A stretch of 64,000 bases of DNA from a virus (Duplodnaviria; Caudoviricetes), in IMG/VR virus record IMGVR_UViG_3300020048_003360, positions 128,001-192,000 of that record; one strand, written 5' to 3'. Positions 1,613-33,755 of this stretch are shown here, one piece after another. A program made the position numbers and the translations under genes. Each line of letters opens with the position of its first letter. Positions within the stretch are counted from its first letter, which is position 1. The notes beneath the pieces were generated by a model, which was not told the DNA's origin, searched no databases, and saw only the letters and a list, made by a program, of their open reading frames with translations.

Positions 1613-1953
1613 CGGTTTCTTCAATATGGTTCGTTAATCCATACCCGTGCACTAAAGCACTGCTCTAGCTTTCACTAGATGCCGAGACTATATCTTCACC
1701 TACTATTTAAATAGTTTAGGTGTTTCCTATTTCCACCCACTTGGGTGTACTGGCTGATAAAGCCATAGTCGTTGAACGTTTCTCATACTCTTTGAGGTTA
1801 GAGACTTCGCTGCTGATTGCCCATTGTACTATCTATTTCTTTTCAAACTATCGCATCTATCTTTTCAGATTACGCTGTAGTGAAATAGCTTTAGGGAGTT
1901 CCAGCAATTAAAGAAAATTCAATTAACCATTACTGATTAATCGGACCATAATA
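1613..1953 (-). mobile_element. Group I intron 1 (ORF-less, ~341 nt) in vRNAP beta gene
   Basis: P AATTGCTGGAACTC (~1896-1909), Q GGGCAATCAGCAGCGAAG (1805-1822), R ACGTTCAACGACTA (1766-1779), S AAGATATAGTCT (1685-1696). Terminal G at 1613; splicing gives SDMDD|PKRVNF. The 5' splice site could be 3 nt earlier. Confidence 0.92.
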
Positions 1954-4900
1954 ATCATCCATATCACTACCTGGTGCATTTAGTGCTGACGTACTCAATA
2001 GAGCAGTGGCACCACTTTCACCTACTGTATATCCCTTAGTCATACCTCTCAAATTAGTAAACTGTGGATCAGCACTGGTAAATGTATTTATAGCTACATC
2101 ACTACTATCTACAGTGGCCTCAGAAATAGTACCCATGTCATTTTTATGGTAGAGTCTAGTGCGTTTTGTCATACTGCGACTATTACGACCACCAGTACCA
2201 CTATAGGTAACAGCTTCAGTTTCTTTTAGATTCTGAATTGGATTAATATCATTTACAGTTACTACTGCCGGATCCTGACGTAGAGACATCCAAACTGCAT
2301 ACGGATTTAACTCAATTTGCTTATTACCCTTACCTGGTTTGGCATTATGCGCTCTAATTGCTTTAACCATTTCTGTATAGACTACACCAGCTACTCTTTC
2401 ATATCCTTTAATACGCATATGGCTGGGATCTAATTCATCTGGATGTTCTTCCGTTAACAGTAGTTCACAACTACGGATTAATAATCCATGGAATGTAGTG
2501 GGTTCTTTCATTTCCCGCAATAGTTCTTTAGTAATTGGATCAATAAACATCTGATACATCAGGTCTATTTCACGCAAATACTTAGTACTAGCACCATCTG
2601 TTTCTAATACATTCAAATAGACACTGGGTTTATCAAAGTCATATACACCATAGTCAATAATTGCTTTATGGTATTCATTGAATCCAGCCAGTATAATTGA
2701 TGCCTTCCTATCGTCTTTAGAAAATACTAGAGTCTCATCACTGAATACTAAAGAATATTCGTGTGATTCTAAATTCACTCTAGTGCCGGTATTCACACGT
2801 CTAGGCACCACACCCAGCAGCTTAATTAACCTACTCAAACCTAACTCATATCCTAAGATAATTCCAATCGGAATCTCTCTACCCATTACCTTAAGTTCAG
2901 CATGATCTACAGGTGCCTTCTTAGCATCTAGACCTAATAGATCTTCAATAGAGCAGAGATCTACCAAATCACCATTATTGCCAGTATATAATGCACCATC
3001 TGAATCCATTACTAAATAAATGTTAGTACCTAATGGACCAATGCCTTTTGTACTAGTAGTGGTATTTAAACCGACTATAATAGCACCATCTTTTTCATAT
3101 GCTTCAATGGCTTCTTTACCATATAGATCTAGACGTTCAGTATGGTCAAAATTAAGAACATATGTAGTTTCTTTACCAGTAATACCACTGTTAGCAGTAA
3201 AGCCCCTAAAGTTTTGAGCCAGTGAATTATACACTCTAGGTGCAGTAAATTGATTATCAAATACATTACCAGTATAGAGTTTAGTAATTGTTAGATTTGT
3301 ATTATCTAAACCCAATACAGTAATATTATTTTTTAACCATTGACAATAGTCATTTACTTTCTTATCACTCCTACTAATAAATGTTTTAGAGTAATAACTA
3401 GTAAGAGCTACGGTATCTGGAGATACCTTTCGTATAGGAAGGTCACCACGTTGCCTTCGTAACTTATACTTAACTCCATTAGACGTGTAAGTGCCGTCAC
3501 TACCAATTACCGGTAACTTATACCTCATTATAGAAGGCATACCTTCTACTGGTTTTACTTTGACAGTATAAAGTTCATAATCGCCCATTACGTCTTCTAC
3601 TACTTCTTTATCATATCCAGTTAATATAACTCCAGCATTCTGAATACTCACTACCATACCAGCAATATCTTTTTCTAATACATTAGAAATGTATTTTTTA
3701 TCAAAGTCATGTAAACTACTCTTTAGCATGCTCTTATCGATAACTGTAGGTATGTCTTTAAAACTATGTGATGATTCTATTTTTAAAGACTCTGGATTTA
3801 CATCAATAAACTTATCTAGAGTTTCCTTTCCATTTGGAGCTACAATACTACGATATGTTTTAGATAGTTCATTGAGTTTTTTATACTCACTAGCTGACAT
3901 CATCCCCATATCTGCCAGTCTATCACATACTCGTAATACACCATCTTCTAGTGTAGGCGCATCTCCTACTATTACTATATCTTCTATTTTATCTCCATCA
4001 TCATTCATGTCACCGTGGTGATTTATAGAGATAGTTTCTAACTCAGATAATTCAGCTTCTATTTCCTTATCTAACTCATCATCAGCAGTAATAGTTTCGT
4101 CTACATCTACTTCAGTTGTATAATCTATTTCCTCACTGCTATCGTCAGTAATCTCCTGACCACTACTTTGAGCAATTATTGCCTTATCTATATCCTTAGC
4201 TATAGTAGTACTATTATTTACTTCTGGTATAGTTACATCTTGTTTTATTACAGTAGTTTTAATAGTATCTATCTTAGATTTCTTAGCTAACTTAGCTGCA
4301 GCTGTTCTCACCTGGAATAGAGCCATCATAAGACGCAGGAAACGCATCTGTAGTTGCTTTGGATCAATACCCTTAGTGTTGGCATCGGGATTGAGTTCTA
4401 GCTCTTCCTTAGTGGCTACACGCCATCTATTTAGCCTACCTAAGTTTACTACAAAAAACTTACCTGACTCTTGAAAAATAATATTTACTTTATCTAATTT
4501 ATCATCTGGTACATTTGCTAATGCAGATTCTTTTCTATCCGGACCTACCCACTTCCACAACTCTAATAGACTTAGACTTTCAGGACTATTAAAGATCTTT
4601 ATGGTTTTTTGAGTAATGCCTTTACTGGCTAATCTTAAGTCAGCAATACTGGGTAAAATATTTGGTAGATTATACAAAATAAACTGATTTCTGTCAACTT
4701 GACCCGCTACTTCGGCTATTTTCTTCCATACAGCAGTTTCAGTATTCCACCATTTATAGTAAGCAGTATAATAAGACCGTAAATATCTATAAAGTCTAGG
4801 AATTACTCCATAATTAAATATAACCAGAGTATTAGCATCTTTACACGCATTAGTTAATTCTCGCATAATCCGAAATCTACGATGCTTAATGTGGTACGTA

Positions 4901-27776: not shown

Positions 27777-28016
27777 TTACTCTGGATTCACTTTAGTAAA
27801 AATACGTCCTTTTTTACCTTCATTAGAAGTTATTAATTTCCACTGTCTCATTTTTGCAGTTTGTGTATTAACTTTAGTAATAGATATTTTCCATACTTCA
27901 GCTGCTTGAGTAGGTGTAAATTGATCAGGAAGTAAAGACAGACGATATTGTCGTATAGCATCAGCATCTTTAAATGACTTAAGGTTACATTTAGCATAAT
28001 GGGCCTTTATTGTCAT
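27777..28016 (-). CDS. Small basic, possibly winged-HTH protein
   Basis: TPTQAAEVWKISITKVNTQTAKMRQWKLI pattern. Confidence 0.55.
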   Translation of the reverse strand: MTIKAHYAKCNLKSFKDADAIRQYRLSLLPDQFTPTQAAEVWKISITKVNTQTAKMRQWKLITSNEGKKGRIFTKVNPE

Positions 28017-28025
28017 AATTTTATC

Positions 28026-28205
28026 CTACTGCAAGATAGTAACTTGATTCATCGCATACGCATTATCTACATCTCTATCATCAACCTTTTCTATTACTAT
28101 TAAATTAGGTGTATTTGTACCCAATATATTAGTGAGCATTGCTGGTAATAGTTTTTTCAAATGACAGTAATAATGATTACCATCCTGTAGTTTAATAATA
28201 CGCAT
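28026..28205 (-). CDS. Small hypothetical protein (59 aa)
   Basis: Manually found ORF MRIIKLQDGNHYY... with AAGGA SD. Confidence 0.5.
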   Translation of the reverse strand: MRIIKLQDGNHYYCHLKKLLPAMLTNILGTNTPNLIVIEKVDDRDVDNAYAMNQVTILQ

Positions 28206-28247
28206 AATTTATTCCTTACTTATTAAATAAATAAAAAAAAAATAAAT

Positions 28248-28283
28248 TACCCTATCAGTCATATTATTTTGACTGATAGGGTA
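28248..28283 (-). terminator. Terminator ending the tRNA/ncRNA island
   Basis: TACCCTATCAGTC/GACTGATAGGGTA stem followed by a U tract on the minus strand. Confidence 0.75.
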
Positions 28284-28611
28284 GTTAAGTAATGGGTGGG
28301 GTGTGATACGTTAGATTTTAATCATACCATAGCGACCGCATCAAAAGTTTCCAAAGCTTTATTGGAAGAACACCCCATTGATAATTTACATCCCATAGAA
28401 CACTACACAAAATATATTGCATAATGCTCTACAGGTTGCACACTAGTAGTTATGGGAGTACTAACGCCATAAAACTAATGACAGCTTGCAGTTATATTAA
28501 GAATCACTTAATATAACTACCGTACGGTTATGAAGAGTGATTAGTTCTTCTACATTCACCGTAAGTTAATCCTCACATTATCCCATAAAGTACGTATGGA
28601 ATGTTTGGAAT

Positions 28612-28644
28612 TGGTGGGCCCGCCCGGACTCGAACCGGGGACCA
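28612..28644 (-). pseudogene. Orphan 3' half of a tRNA (T arm + acceptor strand + CCA)
   Basis: TGGTC CCCGG TTCGAGT CCGGG CGGGCCC A CCA; no D or anticodon arm upstream. Confidence 0.75.
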
Positions 28645-28650
28645 AATTAT

Positions 28651-28818
28651 TTAAATTTCTACGTCAGCTCTTACAAGTGGTCTATTCATAAATTGTTCTG
28701 CAACTAATCTATGTTCATAAACATAACCTTCCATTGCTCCAGATCTTACAGCTTCTGGATGTTCAGGATTATAAACCATTCTATATTCATTAACAATACG
28801 TAATTCTTTTTTAGCCAT
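28651..28818 (-). pseudogene. Truncated HNH-endonuclease-like ORF
   Basis: YRMVYNPEHP...GYVYEHRLVAEQFMNRPL stops before the HH.D/N catalytic part; start refined to MAKKE. Confidence 0.65.
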
Positions 28819-28840
28819 TTTTATAATCCTGTTAAGTGTT

Positions 28841-28916
28841 TGGTGGGACCGGAAGGAGTTGAACCTTACATTCTTGGCTTTATGAGAACCCTGCTTCACC
28901 GTTAAGCTACAGTCCC
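28841..28916 (-). tRNA. tRNA with CAU anticodon (Met or Ile2)
   Basis: GGGACTG acceptor, loop CTCATAA, TTCAACT T loop, CCA end. Confidence 0.85.
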
Positions 28917-28942
28917 AATTTACTACATTTAACTTCTCAAAA

Positions 28943-29460
28943 ATTGTGCTCCTTAAGATATTTCTATCTATACTGTCATTCTAAATCAAGAGCATTATTT
29001 AGAATCTAGACTATGTTATCACCATATATTTGGTAGCTCTTACTCACCACACAGGTGGCTTGCTCAAATACTTAGGTATTCCGTTTCTAGTCTCTACACC
29101 TTCCTGTTATTCCTTAACGACTGTACCACTTCGATCCGTGGCCTTGGTAGGAATACTACGAGTTCAGGCTGGCTCGGCGCTGGCATATTAATAACTACCT
29201 TAGAACAGTCTTACTGCCGATGATTTTTCTTCGGAAAACCATGAAACCATCATCTGCTTCAGATACTTATTAACTTAGCTTTTGCCGAATTTACGGAAAT
29301 ACTACTAGCGGGTTTCCCTTGATACGTTACGCCTTTTCGCGTTCGTCTTACTATACCTGATTCCATTAAGGACTCACAAACATTTCTGCTTGCTCTTCGG
29401 CGATTATCCTATCCAGGTTATCGAAAACTGACTACCATATCATTTTTCGCTAGTGACCTA
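28943..29460 (-). ncRNA. Orphan group-I-intron-like RNA A
   Basis: Shares GGTCACTAGCGAAAAATG, CGCTAGTAGTATTTCCGTAAATTCGGC, GAAGGTGTAGAGACTAG..ACGGAAT and ATAGTC with the tRNA-Leu intron, but has no tRNA exons. Confidence 0.8.
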
Positions 29461-29476
29461 TTACGACACTTTATTC

Positions 29477-29743
29477 TCACACTATATTAAACCTACCATC
29501 AAACAATAGGTTTTCATTTTGTAATCTGATGTCTCCAGAGACGTTCAAATAGTAGGCATCCTTAACCACGGAGCCGTCTTCTAGATAAACATTTATCCTT
29601 AAGACATGATTCCCAAGCGTTTCCTTTATGTCCAGAAACACTCTATCCTTTACAGTAACTCTGGTAGTTACTTTAAGGTCTTCACTTTCTCCAATAGTGA
29701 AGTCATTACCAATAAAATACCTAATCATTTGCACCTCCATCAA
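29477..29743 (-). CDS. Hypothetical 88-aa protein between the two orphan ribozyme-like RNAs
   Basis: ORF with GAGGAG/GGAGG SD-like motifs. Confidence 0.65.
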   Translation of the reverse strand: MMEVQMIRYFIGNDFTIGESEDLKVTTRVTVKDRVFLDIKETLGNHVLRINVYLEDGSVVKDAYYLNVSGDIRLQNENLLFDGRFNIV

Positions 29744-29760
29744 TTAACTCCTCATTAAAG

Positions 29761-30320
29761 ATTGTGCACCTTAGAATGTTTCCATCCATTTAGTCATTTA
29801 TGGTCAAGTGTATTACCATAAATCTAGACTATTATGCTCCTTCATTAACTGTGGTTCATATTAGAGCTTCTGACAGCCATATGGTATTTTAGGTACATCA
29901 GAATTTAAGTACCACAACTACTAATCTACTAGACAACTAACTTAGGATTCCGTTTTTATAATCACACCTTCCTGTCGTGTCTTTGGAGGTACTTCTATCC
30001 TCAGTACTTTATGGGGTCTTAGTCCCACTACAGGCTTGGCTCAGTATCAACATATTCTTTAAAATAGGCTCTTCATTACATTCGGGCAACCCTGCTAGAA
30101 CTAACCGAATGAATTCTATTTACTCAAACCCGTGGCAGGATTTAACTTCGATTTGAGTACCGTCTCTTAAAGAACTTAGTTTTTACTGATTTTACGGAAA
30201 CTGATATCTTTGATTAGATCATTGTGTCATTTAGAATGGTAGGTAAAGGAATTAAGTTTTTACACTACCTTTTTAACCTATTTTATCCATAGCCACGACT
30301 ACAGTGCTAATCTAAAGTAA
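29761..30320 (-). ncRNA. Orphan group-I-intron-like RNA B (divergent P7)
   Basis: GTTTCCGTAAAATC (P3/P), TACTGAGCCAAGCC (Q), CAGGAAGGTGTGATTATAAAAACGGAAT (R), ATAATAGTCTAG (S); 3' tail homologous to RNA A. Confidence 0.7.
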
Positions 30321-30505
30321 CCAGTGCGGTACTATGCTAGGTGCATAATTGTATAACTCTGCCTAGCGCAAAGCGTGTGTCCTTTACTACTAAAGTTCAC
30401 GGGAGTAAATGAAGCTATGGACTTCATTCAGGGATTTTTCTTCTGATTATGCTCATTGCCGAAGATCCACCCGTCGCACGGTCGTATACCCATGTCCATA
30501 GCATG

Positions 30506-30661
30506 GGTTCCCTACTTGCTGAAAATCTTTCTACACGAGTAATCTATCACTCGCTTATCGTTTATCATGTAAGACAGTCCCACATAATTACATCCTGATT
30601 CGGTTTCTATCTTGGAGTAAATAACTTCTCCAGATATAAGGAAAATAATGAGTAGATACAT
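30506..30661 (-). CDS. Small hypothetical protein (51 aa)
   Basis: MYLLIIFLISGEVIYSK... with TAAGGAG SD; manually found. Confidence 0.55.
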
Positions 30662-30678
30662 TTATCTCCTTACTTAAA

Positions 30679-30728
30679 TGGCCTCCCGTAGTGGACTCGA
30701 ACCACTGACCCCAATCTTAGAAGGATTG
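30679..30728 (-). pseudogene. Partial tRNA-Arg(UCU): anticodon arm, T arm, acceptor 3' strand
   Basis: CAATC CTTCTAA GATTG GGGTC AGTGG TTCGAGT CCACT ACGGGAG G CCA; no D arm or dedicated 5' strand. Confidence 0.7.
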
Positions 30729-30734
30729 TTTAAT

Positions 30735-30816
30735 TGGCGGGACAGGTGCGACTCGAACGCACATACTCCAATTACGCGGTTAACGACGGCTTAGAAGGCC
30801 GTTGCGATACTGCCCC
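30735..30816 (-). tRNA. Atypical D-armless tRNA-like RNA, UCU anticodon, long variable region
   Basis: GGGGCAG-TATCGCA-ACGGC CTTCTAA GCCGT-23 nt-GTGCG TTCGAGT CGCAC-CTGTCCC G CCA. Confidence 0.7.
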
Positions 30817-30826
30817 AATTATACTC

Positions 30827-31078
30827 TTACCTAGCAGACGCCATACCCATGGTGGCTCTATGGATAGGTACTACATTGTCGCCGCTCTTCCTCGCCAACT
30901 CTCCATAGCAATCAGCTCTGAGCAACTCTTTCAGTCGCTCAATTGTGTCCTTATCGGAAGTTACGACCAAGTGCAAAGAAGCTGTATCATCGATGTTAGA
31001 GTCAATTACAGCTAACTGCACTGTTTCTTGCTTCGTTGAGTGTGTGGGCGCAAACATCCGTGTAAACCAGTTAAACAT
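30827..31078 (-). CDS. Hypothetical protein
   Basis: 83-aa ORF with AGGA SD between tRNA genes. Confidence 0.65.
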   Translation of the reverse strand: MFNWFTRMFAPTHSTKQETVQLAVIDSNIDDTASLHLVVTSDKDTIERLKELLRADCYGELARKSGDNVVPIHRATMGMASAR

Positions 31079-31114
31079 TTTATTCGTCCTATTATTTAGT
31101 TGATCGATGTCTTA

Positions 31115-31387
31115 CTACTGAGTACTCTCTACAGATTCACTACTAACTTCCTTTGCTGAGATCATCCATTCAAGAAAGCTATGATACACACTCATTGCTT
31201 CATTTTCATCAACCGGCACTCTAATTCCTCTCACATAGAAGCCATCTTCAGCAATTCTAAGGACAGGTTCACCAGTTTTAGCATGGTGAAAGATTACAGA
31301 ATTAGGATATAACTCTGCAGCAGTCATAGCCACTTCTGAATGAACTTCGTTAATTGCCACTGCATCCACATTTTCTTCCATGATCAT
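31115..31387 (-). CDS. Hypothetical protein
   Basis: Start refined (MIMEENV) because the longer ORF overlaps tRNA-Thr; VLRIAEDGFYVRG motif. Confidence 0.65.
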   Translation of the reverse strand: MIMEENVDAVAINEVHSEVAMTAAELYPNSVIFHHAKTGEPVLRIAEDGFYVRGIRVPVDENEAMSVYHSFLEWMISAKEVSSESVESTQ

Positions 31388-31401
31388 TCCTTTAAATAAG
31401 A

Positions 31402-31476
31402 TGGTGCCCAAGGTGGAAGTCGAACACCAGATCCCCGCATTACAAGTGCGGTGCATTACCATTCTGCTACAAGGGC
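31402..31476 (-). tRNA. tRNA-Thr(UGU)
   Basis: GCCCTTG acceptor, CCGCA CTTGTAA TGCGG anticodon arm, CCA end. Confidence 0.85.
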
Positions 31477-31489
31477 TATTTATTAAATA

Positions 31490-31792
31490 TTAATTTGATT
31501 GACCAATTGCCATATCGACAATATCTTTCAATGTAATATTATCTTTATACATTCCGTATTCATACTCCTCTAATGGAAAATGAATTAAACTAAACGCCTT
31601 ACTTAGCTTTTCAGGATCTGAAATAACAACAGTTTCTTCTAGCTTAACTTGAGTTTCAATATTAACAGATTCCAAATGAATCTTATTAGTACCAATTATT
31701 TCAACATTTGTTTCAAAAATCTTTTTCATTTCATTTCCTAAATAACCTTTATTCCATAAGGATTTAAAAAGCTCTTGTAATTCCAAGATCAT
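31490..31792 (-). CDS. Hypothetical protein
   Basis: 100-aa ORF with AAGGAG SD. Confidence 0.65.
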   Translation of the reverse strand: MILELQELFKSLWNKGYLGNEMKKIFETNVEIIGTNKIHLESVNIETQVKLEETVVISDPEKLSKAFSLIHFPLEEYEYGMYKDNITLKDIVDMAIGQSN

Positions 31793-31809
31793 TTTGTTCT
31801 CCTTATGGA

Positions 31810-31842
31810 AATCCGGCGCTCTACCAACTGAGCTATTGAGGA
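31810..31842 (-). pseudogene. Orphan 5' half of a tRNA
   Basis: TCCTCAA TA GCTC AGTTGGTA GAGC G CCGGA TT, then directly the SD of the next ORF; no matching 3' half nearby. Confidence 0.7.
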
Positions 31843-31852
31843 TTATTGTAAC

Positions 31853-32381
31853 TGGTGGGGGTAATCGGAGTCGAACCGATATACCTTGCGGTGAGGGATT
31901 TTACTTACCACTTCGGTTTTCACCGCCAGTCTTAGCCCTTGCGGGTTATCTTCTGTTCGTGGTCTGGACTATGCTATCGCCATATTACGATTTATCACCT
32001 TGACTTGACTTTACAAGTGATAGTTTATAGTCAACCGTAACGTAGGCATTCCGTCTCTAGTCTCTACACCTTCCTAATCATTAAAGCGGAGTTCTCGCTG
32101 TCTTTCGACGGATATTTCCAACATTAACAGTTTAGGCTTGGCTCGGCGTTGGCATACACTCATTCGTATCTTTTCAGGAACCTATCGTTTCGGTATTACC
32201 AACCTGCAAAGAATTTTAACTATTGAGTGTGAAGCGTTCGCCGAATTTACGGAAATACTACTAGCGTCTTTCGATTGAGTCATTACGCCAAGACAGGAAA
32301 AGCCCGCCGAGACTACCAACTCATTTTTCGCTAGTGACCCATTAAAGAGTCCCTTGTGTCTACCAATTTCACCATACCCCC
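31853..32381 (-). tRNA. tRNA-Leu(UAA) interrupted by a group I intron
   Basis: Exons 32348-32381 and 31853-31903 join into an 85-nt cloverleaf: GGGGGTA/TACCCCC acceptor, AGGGA CT|TAAAA TCCCT, long variable arm, CCA. Confidence 0.92.
31904..32347 (-). mobile_element. Group I intron (444 nt, ORF-less) after U33 of tRNA-Leu
   Basis: Exon GACU pairs with IGS GGUC (U.G splice pair); P7 GAGACTA/TAGTCC; ends CGGT-GAAA-ACCG..GTAAG|. Confidence 0.9.
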
Positions 32382-32410
32382 TCAAATTGAAAAGTTCTAG
32401 TTACAACTAC

Positions 32411-32448
32411 ATATAGGTAATATATGTTTATAAAAAGTTTCAATCGTT
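32411..32448 (-). promoter_or_regulatory. Early promoter driving the tRNA island
   Basis: TTTTTATAAACATATATTACCTATATG; TATATTAC at 32417-32424, ~35 nt above tRNA-Leu. Confidence 0.75.
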
Positions 32449-32487
32449 GTATTTCCACACAGTATCTATATATCAAATAAAAAAACT

Positions 32488-33231
32488 CTATTGAGAATTA
32501 AGTATTGTGGCCAGTGCTCTAGCTTGATTAACTGGCGTACTACTAAAACAATCCGATAATATATTATTATTCTCACTAGCTTTGACTCGTAACTCATCCA
32601 TTAAGTCTGGATGTAAGCTAGTCCAAATAGTCCATAGCCTTAAGTATTCTTGCCATAAATCTATTTTAGTGTCTAATGGCGGTTTACCTTTACCTAACCG
32701 CCAGTTATTACTACCTGGACTATGGGCTTTAACATCACACTGGTAGTGACTCTCTAGATATCTACCATCTGGCATTATCGCATATAGCGCACTAAAACGT
32801 TTATCTCCCACACTAGAGCACTCATACCCACCTTTACGCTGATACGTTACTGTTGGATTGGTATTCTTTATTCCATATTTTATTAAATATACTGGCTTAT
32901 TTAGTTGTTTCATATAGTCCATCATGTGTTTAGTACCATTGGACTTACCATCCCAAAAAACTAATAAAGCGTCAGCAAACTTACCCATTTCGGTATTTCT
33001 AATGTATCCTGCTTTCTTACCTAAGCCAGTCCAGTTAGCTGGAAATTCATATACCTTAATATTATTTAAAAGACCATATCTGTATCCTAGTTTATCGGCA
33101 CCAGGTGCCATACCAGAAACAATAGCAGTGTCTCTATTTATTACTTTTATTATATTGTTTATTGTGTCACTTAATAATTGATAGTTAGTAAATGTTCTAG
33201 TACCAGCTACAATTAATTTATATTCATCCAT
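32488..33231 (-). CDS. SLOG (YspA/DUF2493-like) domain fused to a NADAR-like domain
   Basis: N-terminus LIVAGTR..IVSGMAPGAD..AGYIRN..FWDGKSNGT.HM; C-terminus YECSSVGDKRFSALYA..ESHYQCDVK. Confidence 0.65.
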   Translation of the reverse strand: MDEYKLIVAGTRTFTNYQLLSDTINNIIKVINRDTAIVSGMAPGADKLGYRYGLLNNIKVYEFPANWTGLGKKAGYIRNTEMGKFADALLVFWDGKSNGTKHMMDYMKQLNKPVYLIKYGIKNTNPTVTYQRKGGYECSSVGDKRFSALYAIMPDGRYLESHYQCDVKAHSPGSNNWRLGKGKPPLDTKIDLWQEYLRLWTIWTSLHPDLMDELRVKASENNNILSDCFSSTPVNQARALATILNSQ

Positions 33232-33305
33232 TTCACATTATCCTTATTCTAGAAACAAAAAAAAGAGATCACGCCAGTAGTTACACTGGTATGACCTCTT
33301 TGCTA

Positions 33306-33755
33306 TCAATTAGGACGTTTCTTATTCGTCCACTCCCAGTCATGTGGTGGAATAGATAATTCCACTCGTCCTACCATTGGTACATCTACCCATATCAGTA
33401 GATGTCCATCTGGTAGGGCTTTTGCCAATTCATCTGGAATCTCCTCTACTGAGACTCCTAATGAATTAGCCTTTTGGCCAGCCCGCACAGCGATATCTTG
33501 CCATGCATAATAAGCTGCCAAGGATAAAGACACGCGGTCAAGCGTATCGCCAAGGTCCTTCATTGCTACCACCAGGCAGTTCCTGACTGCCTGGAGGTCT
33601 GGGTAGACCAAACCCAGTAGTTCGTTAACCTCTGGTAACTTACCAGAGACCGCATCGACCTCTAGCAACTTATATCCTTCTCGTGACTGATGAAGGGTAG
33701 TCATTACTGCGTGGCCGACATTGTGTCGCACCAACATTTTGAACTGATTTTTCAT
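33306..33755 (-). CDS. Hypothetical GC-richer early protein
   Basis: 149 aa; downstream of the promoter at 33909. Confidence 0.7.
   Translation of the reverse strand: MKNQFKMLVRHNVGHAVMTTLHQSREGYKLLEVDAVSGKLPEVNELLGLVYPDLQAVRNCLVVAMKDLGDTLDRVSLSLAAYYAWQDIAVRAGQKANSLGVSVEEIPDELAKALPDGHLLIWVDVPMVGRVELSIPPHDWEWTNKKRPN

Follow-up and report, generated by a model that had tools for sequence, protein, structure and literature searches.

Two tRNA-less copies of a tRNA-type group I intron in the spacers of a phage tRNA operon

The tRNA operon of an uncultured phage, whose record comes from an aquatic metagenome, contains two diverged, tRNA-less copies of a tRNA-type group I intron, here called RNA A and RNA B, each of which lies directly before a gene and has had its shape kept by compensatory evolution. 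The two copies are sister paralogues, and the pattern of their differences indicates that their common 3' domain has been under selection for its fold rather than undergoing plain decay. The reading that we favor, and to which we give an even chance, is that A and B are spacer-resident intron copies that would act in cis, by excision or by 3' cleavage.

The window analyzed is a stretch of 64,000 nucleotides, bases 128001-192000 of the linear 208-kb IMG/VR virus record IMGVR_UViG_3300020048_003360, which is ~78% complete. The DNA of the locus is identical across four metagenome runs of one study and an independent ENA contig, and the contigs of the four DNA runs are all identical, none of them representing an allele without A or B. 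The features of the locus are as follows.

31853-32381, minus strand: tRNA-Leu(UAA) gene with a group I intron of the parental type (IC3); the intron mode of ARAGORN restores tRNA-Leu
30346-30511, minus strand: structured leader of ~160 nt between the stop of ORF49 and B; no Rfam match
29770-30345, minus strand: RNA B, a diverged group I-derived RNA; 19 of 73 invariant core columns are altered (54/73 kept)
29744-29769, minus strand: 3' flank of B, GUGCACAAUCUUUAAUGAGGAGUUAA; homologous to the flank of A and carrying the SD for ORF88
29477-29743, minus strand: ORF88, encoding an orphan protein; gene callers start it at ATG 29728 (83 aa)
29700-29704, minus strand: GACU^U in ORF88 (the caret marks the site), candidate 5' splice site, remote from A; matches AGGUC in every pair, the U.G included
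28952-29462, minus strand: RNA A, a group I ribozyme close to intact; 7 of 73 invariant core columns are altered (66/73 kept)
28929-28951, minus strand: 3' flank of A, GAGCACAAUUUUUGAGAAGUUAA, then AUG UAG; homologous to the flank of B
28841-28916, minus strand: tRNA-Met(CAU), beginning 35 nt downstream of the UAAG of A
28612-28821, minus strand: truncated HNH homing-endonuclease ORF (PHROG E=3e-5), then a 3' fragment of a CAU tRNA

Along the minus strand, the operon runs from the intron-bearing tRNA-Leu(UAA) gene through a tRNA-Gly(UCC)-like 5' half that continues into ORF100 (31850-31812), tRNA-Thr, two small ORFs, a tRNA-like RNA that lacks a D arm (UCU anticodon, long variable region; 30816-30738), the 3' half of a tRNA, including a UCU anticodon arm (30725-30680), and ORF49 to the leader, B, ORF88, A and tRNA-Met(CAU); it ends with the truncated HNH ORF, the 3' piece of the CAU tRNA and a strong terminator at 28283-28248. 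The order leader, B, ORF, A and tRNA(CAU) on this strand is the one given in an earlier note, which had been made from the DNA letters and had proposed A and B as a host-less ribozyme pair forming a candidate new RNA system. No convincing terminator is present from ~33260 to 28283; consequently, co-transcription of the whole as a single unit is plausible. The leader of B has no homology to the sequence upstream of A.

The adjacency of the intron-bearing tRNA-Leu gene and tRNA-Met is conserved in phages L009, L021, L023, and L004, and in the present phage, the slot before tRNA-Met is taken by A. The genes that border the region are 9 kb apart here versus 2 kb in a related phage, and the region is thus a hypervariable insert of ~7 kb. 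A search for relatives through a neighboring SLOG-like protein returned none, and a search through a 229-aa neighboring protein returned one phage, but the tRNA cluster of that phage lies elsewhere in its genome. The HNH ORF proper (28651-28821, 56 aa) matches the middle of HNH homing endonucleases, and the CAU tRNA 3' end that follows it (28650-28612) has an intact homologue at 983-908 of L009. The truncated HNH gene has apparently destroyed this CAU tRNA gene, and together, the two remnants show that mobile-element debris accumulates in the operon.

The intron of the tRNA-Leu gene (32347-31904, 444 nt) is inserted after U33; its P1 is GACUC/GGGUC, its omega-G is at 31904, and its 3' end is GGUAAG. 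As the earlier note had stated, A and B are homologous to this intron: all three have the core blocks UUUCCGUAAAUUCGGCG, GCCGAGCCAAGCC, AAGGUGUAGAGACUAGAGACGGAAU, and GAUAGCAUAGUC in common, which we take to be those of Azoarcus/Anabaena-type IC3 group I introns. Pattern scans of IMG/VR recovered a family whose members lie after U33 of tRNA-Leu(UAA) in L004, L009, L021, L023, and L032, in CAU tRNAs in L005 and L008, and in intergenic spacers in L011, L031, L037, and L042. Across the 12 intact members, 73 of 104 anchored columns of the core are invariant, P7 covaries (GACUA/UAGUC, GCACA/UGUGC, and GAACA/UGUUC), and P2 covaries as well. Rfam searches of positions 28000-33500 at E<=1 gave no RF00028 match to A, B, or the tRNA-Leu intron, and L031 is the only family member that scores with the Rfam group I model, weakly, at 26 bits. 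Since even the proven tRNA-Leu intron is missed, the model is insensitive to this family. The present genome holds three copies of the family (the tRNA-Leu intron, A, and B), whereas each of the other family-bearing phage records has one copy and no orphans.

Several side observations concern introns of this and other phages. In phage tRNA genes, members of the Azoarcus-like IC3 family are 260-600 nt long; they follow U33 in tRNA-Leu(UAA) and either U33 or U36 in CAU tRNAs, and almost all are missed by RF00028 and by default tRNA finders. The P2 domain of the tRNA-Leu intron of L009 (~2410-2325, minus strand) contains a tRNA-like insert that is not called by ARAGORN; in it, GCG..CGC resembles a D-arm, GTAAG-TTCGACT-CTTAC is the T-arm, and the closure is acceptor-like. 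Elsewhere in the genome that carries A and B are three canonical group I introns (window 1663-1966, C1:86570-86871, and C1:127114-127465; RF00028, 77-92 bits), whose sequences show no relation to the tRNA-type family.

All core helices of RNA A pair. The guide AGGUC (29459-29455), P2, P2.1, P3, P4, P6, and P8 are kept, P7 is extended to 6 bp (AGACUA/UAGUCU), P2.1 carries two compensatory double changes relative to the family, and two 3' hairpins (29005-28978 and 28969-28956) lead to a putative omega-G at 28952; the folding z-score is -2.3. The seven changes at invariant columns cluster in J4/5-J5/4, at one base of GAGCCAAGCC, in J7/3, in J8/7, and at the base after P7. The adjacent 5' flank, GUGUC, does not pair with the guide, so that A has no adjacent P1 and no U.G site there, and its flank shows no P10 complementarity to the guide.

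RNA B has diverged further. It keeps P3 unchanged (30199-30194/29953-29948), P4 with three compensatory double changes relative to the family, P6, P8, and the two 3' hairpins, and the 5' strand of its P7, GAUUA (29963-29959), forms a G.U pair with UAGUC; the folding z-score is -3.0, and the putative omega-G is at 29770. J6/7 is three bases shorter, J8/7 is rewritten at the same length, and the J6/7-P7-J8/7 consensus is lost. On alignment to the family, no guide (IGS), P1, or P2 is recognizable. The conserved IC3 core, helices together with the junction sequences of the family, is therefore present in A but only in part in B, where the helices pair but J6/7 and J8/7 depart from the family. At the position of the guide, B has the segment UGCACCU (30345-30339), which is perfectly complementary to AG^GUGCA (29772-29765), that is, to the last two bases of the intron and the first five of the flank, whose GUGCA pairs with UGCAC at 30345-30341 (dG -11.9, p=0.005 versus shuffles). 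This helix could be P10-like or inhibitory. A counterpart is absent from A (p=0.57 versus shuffles), and a closing 5'/3' helix common to both RNAs was accordingly rejected as an explanation of the flank.

Structured peripheral modules recur in different helices and loci. The insert in P5 of A (29267-29198) is 87% identical to an insert in P6 of L004 (L004 737-805), and the insert in P5 of B (30161-30058) has a stand-alone counterpart in L009 (3366-3261), at 78% identity and with compensatory changes; this counterpart has no group I core around it and adjoins a homologue of ORF49. A pattern search for this second module returned L009 only. Such peripheral RNA modules thus move between helices and loci.

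A and B have in common three derived states at positions that are invariant in the family, as well as a private 3' domain and flank, and these features make them sister paralogues. Both contain the covarying GAAA hairpin of the earlier note, AGAUA-GAAA-UAUCU in one copy and GGAUG-GAAA-CAUUC in the other, each followed by UAAG as at the terminus of the true intron. A second covarying hairpin in the domain has 9 bp and five double changes. Selection was assessed by comparing A with B over the 62 nt from UAGUC to UAAG. All 14 of the 14 pairs are kept in both RNAs, with seven double compensatory changes and one single change from GC to GU; 15 of the 20 differences fall in stems, and identity is 29/34 at unpaired positions versus 13/28 (~46%) at paired ones (Fisher p=0.002). 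Furthermore, the peripheral domains of A and B can no longer be aligned; neutral change has thus reached saturation, and those loops, junctions, and flank positions that are still alike are under constraint. The earlier note had suspected selection on a common 3' exon or target, and the comparison supports selection on the common 3' domain and flank: there are compensatory doubles but no broken pair, and the flank is ~85% identical where the stems are far below this. A and B are not plain junk, because substitutions within the helices are compensated whereas loops, junctions, and flank have hardly changed.

The conserved stretch after UAAG had been described as a nine-base G(A/T)GCACAAT. This motif is indeed in both copies and nowhere else in the 208-kb genome, but the homology of the flanks extends over ~23-26 nt and includes an SD-like GAGRAG and an ATG. 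In the flank of B, these are GAGGAG and the ATG of ORF88, whereas in that of A, they are GAGAAG and ATG-TAG. Beyond ~26 nt, up to GACU, the resemblance is not significant (p=0.29). Conservation past the putative terminal G has three simpler readings than the trans-splicing or circularization that had been suggested: the stretch belongs to the unit of DNA duplication, it contains the region where translation of ORF88 starts, or it may still lie inside the RNA. Under the last of these, the true 3' end may be GAGRAG^ (28933 in A, 29748 in B), and most of the flank would then be internal. A small hairpin that includes the terminal G is possible in both flanks, with one covarying position in its support. 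Two other origins were tried and rejected. By eye, the flank is plausible against L009 as a remnant of a tRNA-Leu CCA end and the Leu-Met spacer, but this match is not significant (p=0.14-0.46), and a tandem duplication of a larger unit of ORF plus ribozyme is contradicted by the lack of homology of the B leader and ORF49 to ORF88.

The protein of ORF88 belongs to no Pfam or PHROG family (atlas scores are below 0.8), its only homologue among 5.8 billion proteins is itself, and its AlphaFold model has a pLDDT of 50. It has no endonuclease signature, and neither ORF88 nor its neighboring ORFs have transposase domains.

Searches for a host gene around A or B found no split tRNA (ARAGORN with introns of up to 1500 nt, and Rfam) and no split ORF, and A and B are thus without tRNA exons. 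Relatives of their tail were sought with exact patterns, by which diverged relatives can be missed. In IMG/VR, GAAAYATYYTAAGGWGCACAAT gave 0 matches and a scan for ATAGTCTAGATT..GAAA..TAAGG gave one chance match inside a coding gene (L013); the tail/flank pattern gave 22 matches in JGI metagenomes and 19 in GTDB genomes, none with a group I core upstream. By these pattern scans, then, neither the 3' domain nor the flank has a homologue in IMG/VR, JGI metagenomes, or GTDB genomes, and this lack of homologues that retain the tail is among the outcomes that the earlier note had named as speaking against its proposal. Rfam searches of 28000-33500 (E<=1) gave no match to GIR1 or to a riboswitch, the c-di-GMP-II aptamer included.

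The intergenic members of the family indicate how copies outside tRNA genes may behave. In L011, L031, L037, and L042, the element lies between the stop of one ORF and the RBS of the next, is present once per genome, has a fully conserved core, and carries an extra covarying hairpin between the P9 stem and the terminal AAG; the real 3' end of these relatives comes after that hairpin, as GAGRAG^ ends would in A and B. For L037, an empty-site homologue is available in L118 (2436-2501), which shares with L037 both the upstream ORF (ending ..GDDDF) and the downstream ORF; the spacer between them is 64 nt in L118 versus 681 nt in L037. In L037, the guide GAAGGUC and the 5' site GAUGACU^, which overlaps the last codons of the upstream ORF, form 6-7 bp, the intron includes a hairpin that follows GUGGUA and has its real end at CAAG^, and the joined exons are collinear with L118, all of which fits an ordinary intron on sequence comparison. 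All 5' sites of the family read [G/U]A[C/U]U^ opposite GGUC, and the P1 loops are long (15-90 nt). Together with the L037/L118 comparison, these sites imply that the family colonizes spacers and the ends of ORFs. Relative to a PD-(D/E)XK gene common to the related phages L037 and L042, the element occupies differing positions.

The description of A as host-less needs qualification. The absence of tRNA exons stands, but A has one perfect partner for its guide, GACU^U, which lies ~240 nt upstream of A within ORF88 and whose +1 U matches the change from G to A in the guide. The match is not significant, since 22% of shuffled sequences contain one as good (p=0.22); A may nevertheless not be truly host-less. 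Splicing at GACU^U would place the greater part of ORF88 in the P1 loop and terminate the reading frame at the junction.

Taken together, these results have led us to favor the model of spacer-resident copies acting in cis. In this model, the phage's own tRNA-type (Azoarcus-like, IC3) intron would have been copied at the DNA level, each copy taking with it ~25 nt of 3' flank, and the copies would have landed in non-coding spacers of the same tRNA/small-ORF operon, where they would most likely act in cis on the operon transcript. With its guide, its intact guanosine-binding P7, and its terminal G, A would probably perform self-excision or 3'-end cleavage after G28952 or G28933. B, which is without a guide, P1-P2, and canonical catalytic junctions, would be a fold-preserving derivative that abuts the RBS of ORF88, and the 5' context of the ORF88 mRNA would depend on the processing or the compact fold of B. 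Homology, the sister relationship, the absence of tRNA exons, and selection on structure are shown by the sequences, whereas catalysis of any kind, the cleavage sites, and any effect on ORF88 or tRNA-Met are inferred. In favor of the model, the core aligns with 12 intact introns, the helices show compensation, the family colonizes spacers, and the altered base of the guide has its match. Against these points must be set the missing adjacent P1 and P10, the p-value of 0.22 for the remote site, and the 7 (A) and 19 (B) changes at invariant columns, several of which lie in J4/5-J5/4, J6/7, and J8/7. The tail of the A/B type is, moreover, confined to this phage, the operon contains tRNA fragments and a dead homing-endonuclease gene, and the B-like piece of the related phage L009 is a fragment only.

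Much of this second list would be expected if A and B were non-functional relics, the decaying leftovers of an ectopic intron duplication in a hypervariable tRNA region, with no present selection and with compensatory changes that date from the time when the copies still sat in genes. The loss of exons, P1, and P10, the substitution of invariant core positions, the tail unique to one phage, the tRNA halves and truncated HNH gene nearby, the ~7-kb insert relative to a related phage, and the mere fragment of a B-like element kept by L009 all speak for this explanation. However, the flank that A and B have in common is not of tRNA origin, and the two must consequently have diverged after leaving any tRNA. 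Since then, 14/14 pairs have been kept although more than half of the stem bases have changed, while unpaired positions and flank have remained 85-88% identical. The keeping of pairs despite such turnover since the split is not expected under neutral decay, and we regard the relic explanation as unlikely, if deserving of serious attention.

The same conservation can also be read as domestication. In this case, A and B would no longer splice but would use the terminal G for hydrolysis at the 3' site, perhaps with the subsequent formation of circles, so that the polycistronic RNA would be cut just upstream of ORF88 and tRNA-Met and a small 5' hairpin would be left on the downstream product; in this role, they would parallel, in a phage, the lariat-capping ribozyme that precedes a homing-endonuclease mRNA. 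Conservation is in fact concentrated towards the 3' end (3' strand of P7, 3' hairpins, UAAG, and flank), and the elements of the 5' splice site have eroded; each copy is directly 5' of a gene, and the short flank hairpin with the terminal G can form in both. In addition, the Azoarcus intron, the closest characterized relative, circularizes through its terminal omega-G (PMC13168695). Yet J6/7 and J8/7 of B, the normal carriers of the catalytic metal sites, are rewritten, the guide and P2 of A are kept for no obvious reason, and the flank hairpin is backed by a single covarying position. Domestication as processing ribozymes is therefore, in our judgment, rather improbable. That A and B have given up exon ligation and cut the operon transcript, or circularize from it, at their own 3' ends, and so provide mature 5' ends and a translation context for the ORF88 mRNA and pre-tRNA-Met, is likewise doubtful.

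The proposal of a new RNA system, in which the pair would cooperate or act in trans (by trans-splicing, on GACU anticodon loops, or through circles encoding ORF88), can draw circumstantially on the common conserved flank, on the bracketing of ORF88 by the pair, and on the complementarity of the guide AGGUC to GACUU, which is also in spliced tRNA-Leu(UAA), but the flank motif occurs at no second locus, homologues are lacking, B has no guide, the regions upstream of A and B are unrelated, nothing requires cooperation, and no result supports the trans-splicing or circle readings, so that we consider it highly improbable.

In reviews, group I ribozymes figure as gene-interrupting introns. Measured against tRNA-type IC3 introns, A and B have the same core blocks, helix set, and terminal ..AAG, but they lie outside a tRNA, have no adjacent P1 or P10, carry substitutions at invariant positions, and have a private two-hairpin 3' domain in place of the ACCAC/GUGGU P9; B is, in addition, without a guide, P1-P2, and the consensus of the catalytic junctions. 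They resemble the intergenic members of the family in their position between an ORF stop and the next RBS and in the extra sequence between the P9 stem and AAG, but unlike these, they form a duplicated pair, show erosion, and have no proven 5' site. Even if A and B are ordinary spacer introns, they belong to a sizeable Azoarcus-like phage family of tRNA genes and spacers that the standard Rfam model misses. Phage group I introns otherwise tend towards conserved protein genes (PMC3984707). An IStron would differ from the present elements in carrying transposase genes, of IS200/IS605 or IS607, after the ribozyme core and before the 3' splice site; ORF88 and the ORFs around it have no such domains.

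In the 5' UTR of a Clostridioides difficile gene, a group I ribozyme lies behind a c-di-GMP-II riboswitch, and the choice of its processing site decides whether the RBS is retained on the mRNA (PMC3984707). Like that allosteric ribozyme, B is in non-coding RNA directly upstream of an ORF, and if B ends at GAGGAG^ (29748), its SD would also lie inside the element. Unlike it, A and B have no aptamer that we could find, are of another intron subgroup, and are in a phage tRNA operon rather than a bacterial chromosome. The lariat-capping (GIR1) ribozyme of twin-ribozyme introns is also a group I fold that has been re-used (PMC4167309, PMC3679873). GIR1 is group I-derived, has given up splicing, has no P1, and is immediately 5' of an ORF, a layout to which that of B is similar. 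However, the present locus has neither an Rfam match to GIR1 nor an enclosing splicing intron, the context of GIR1 is eukaryotic rDNA, and its branching chemistry and core rearrangement are not evident in A or B. To our knowledge, the natural re-use of the group I fold for another job has only these two cases, and if domestication were true, A and B would provide a third, after the lariat-capping and C. difficile ribozymes, and the first in a virus.
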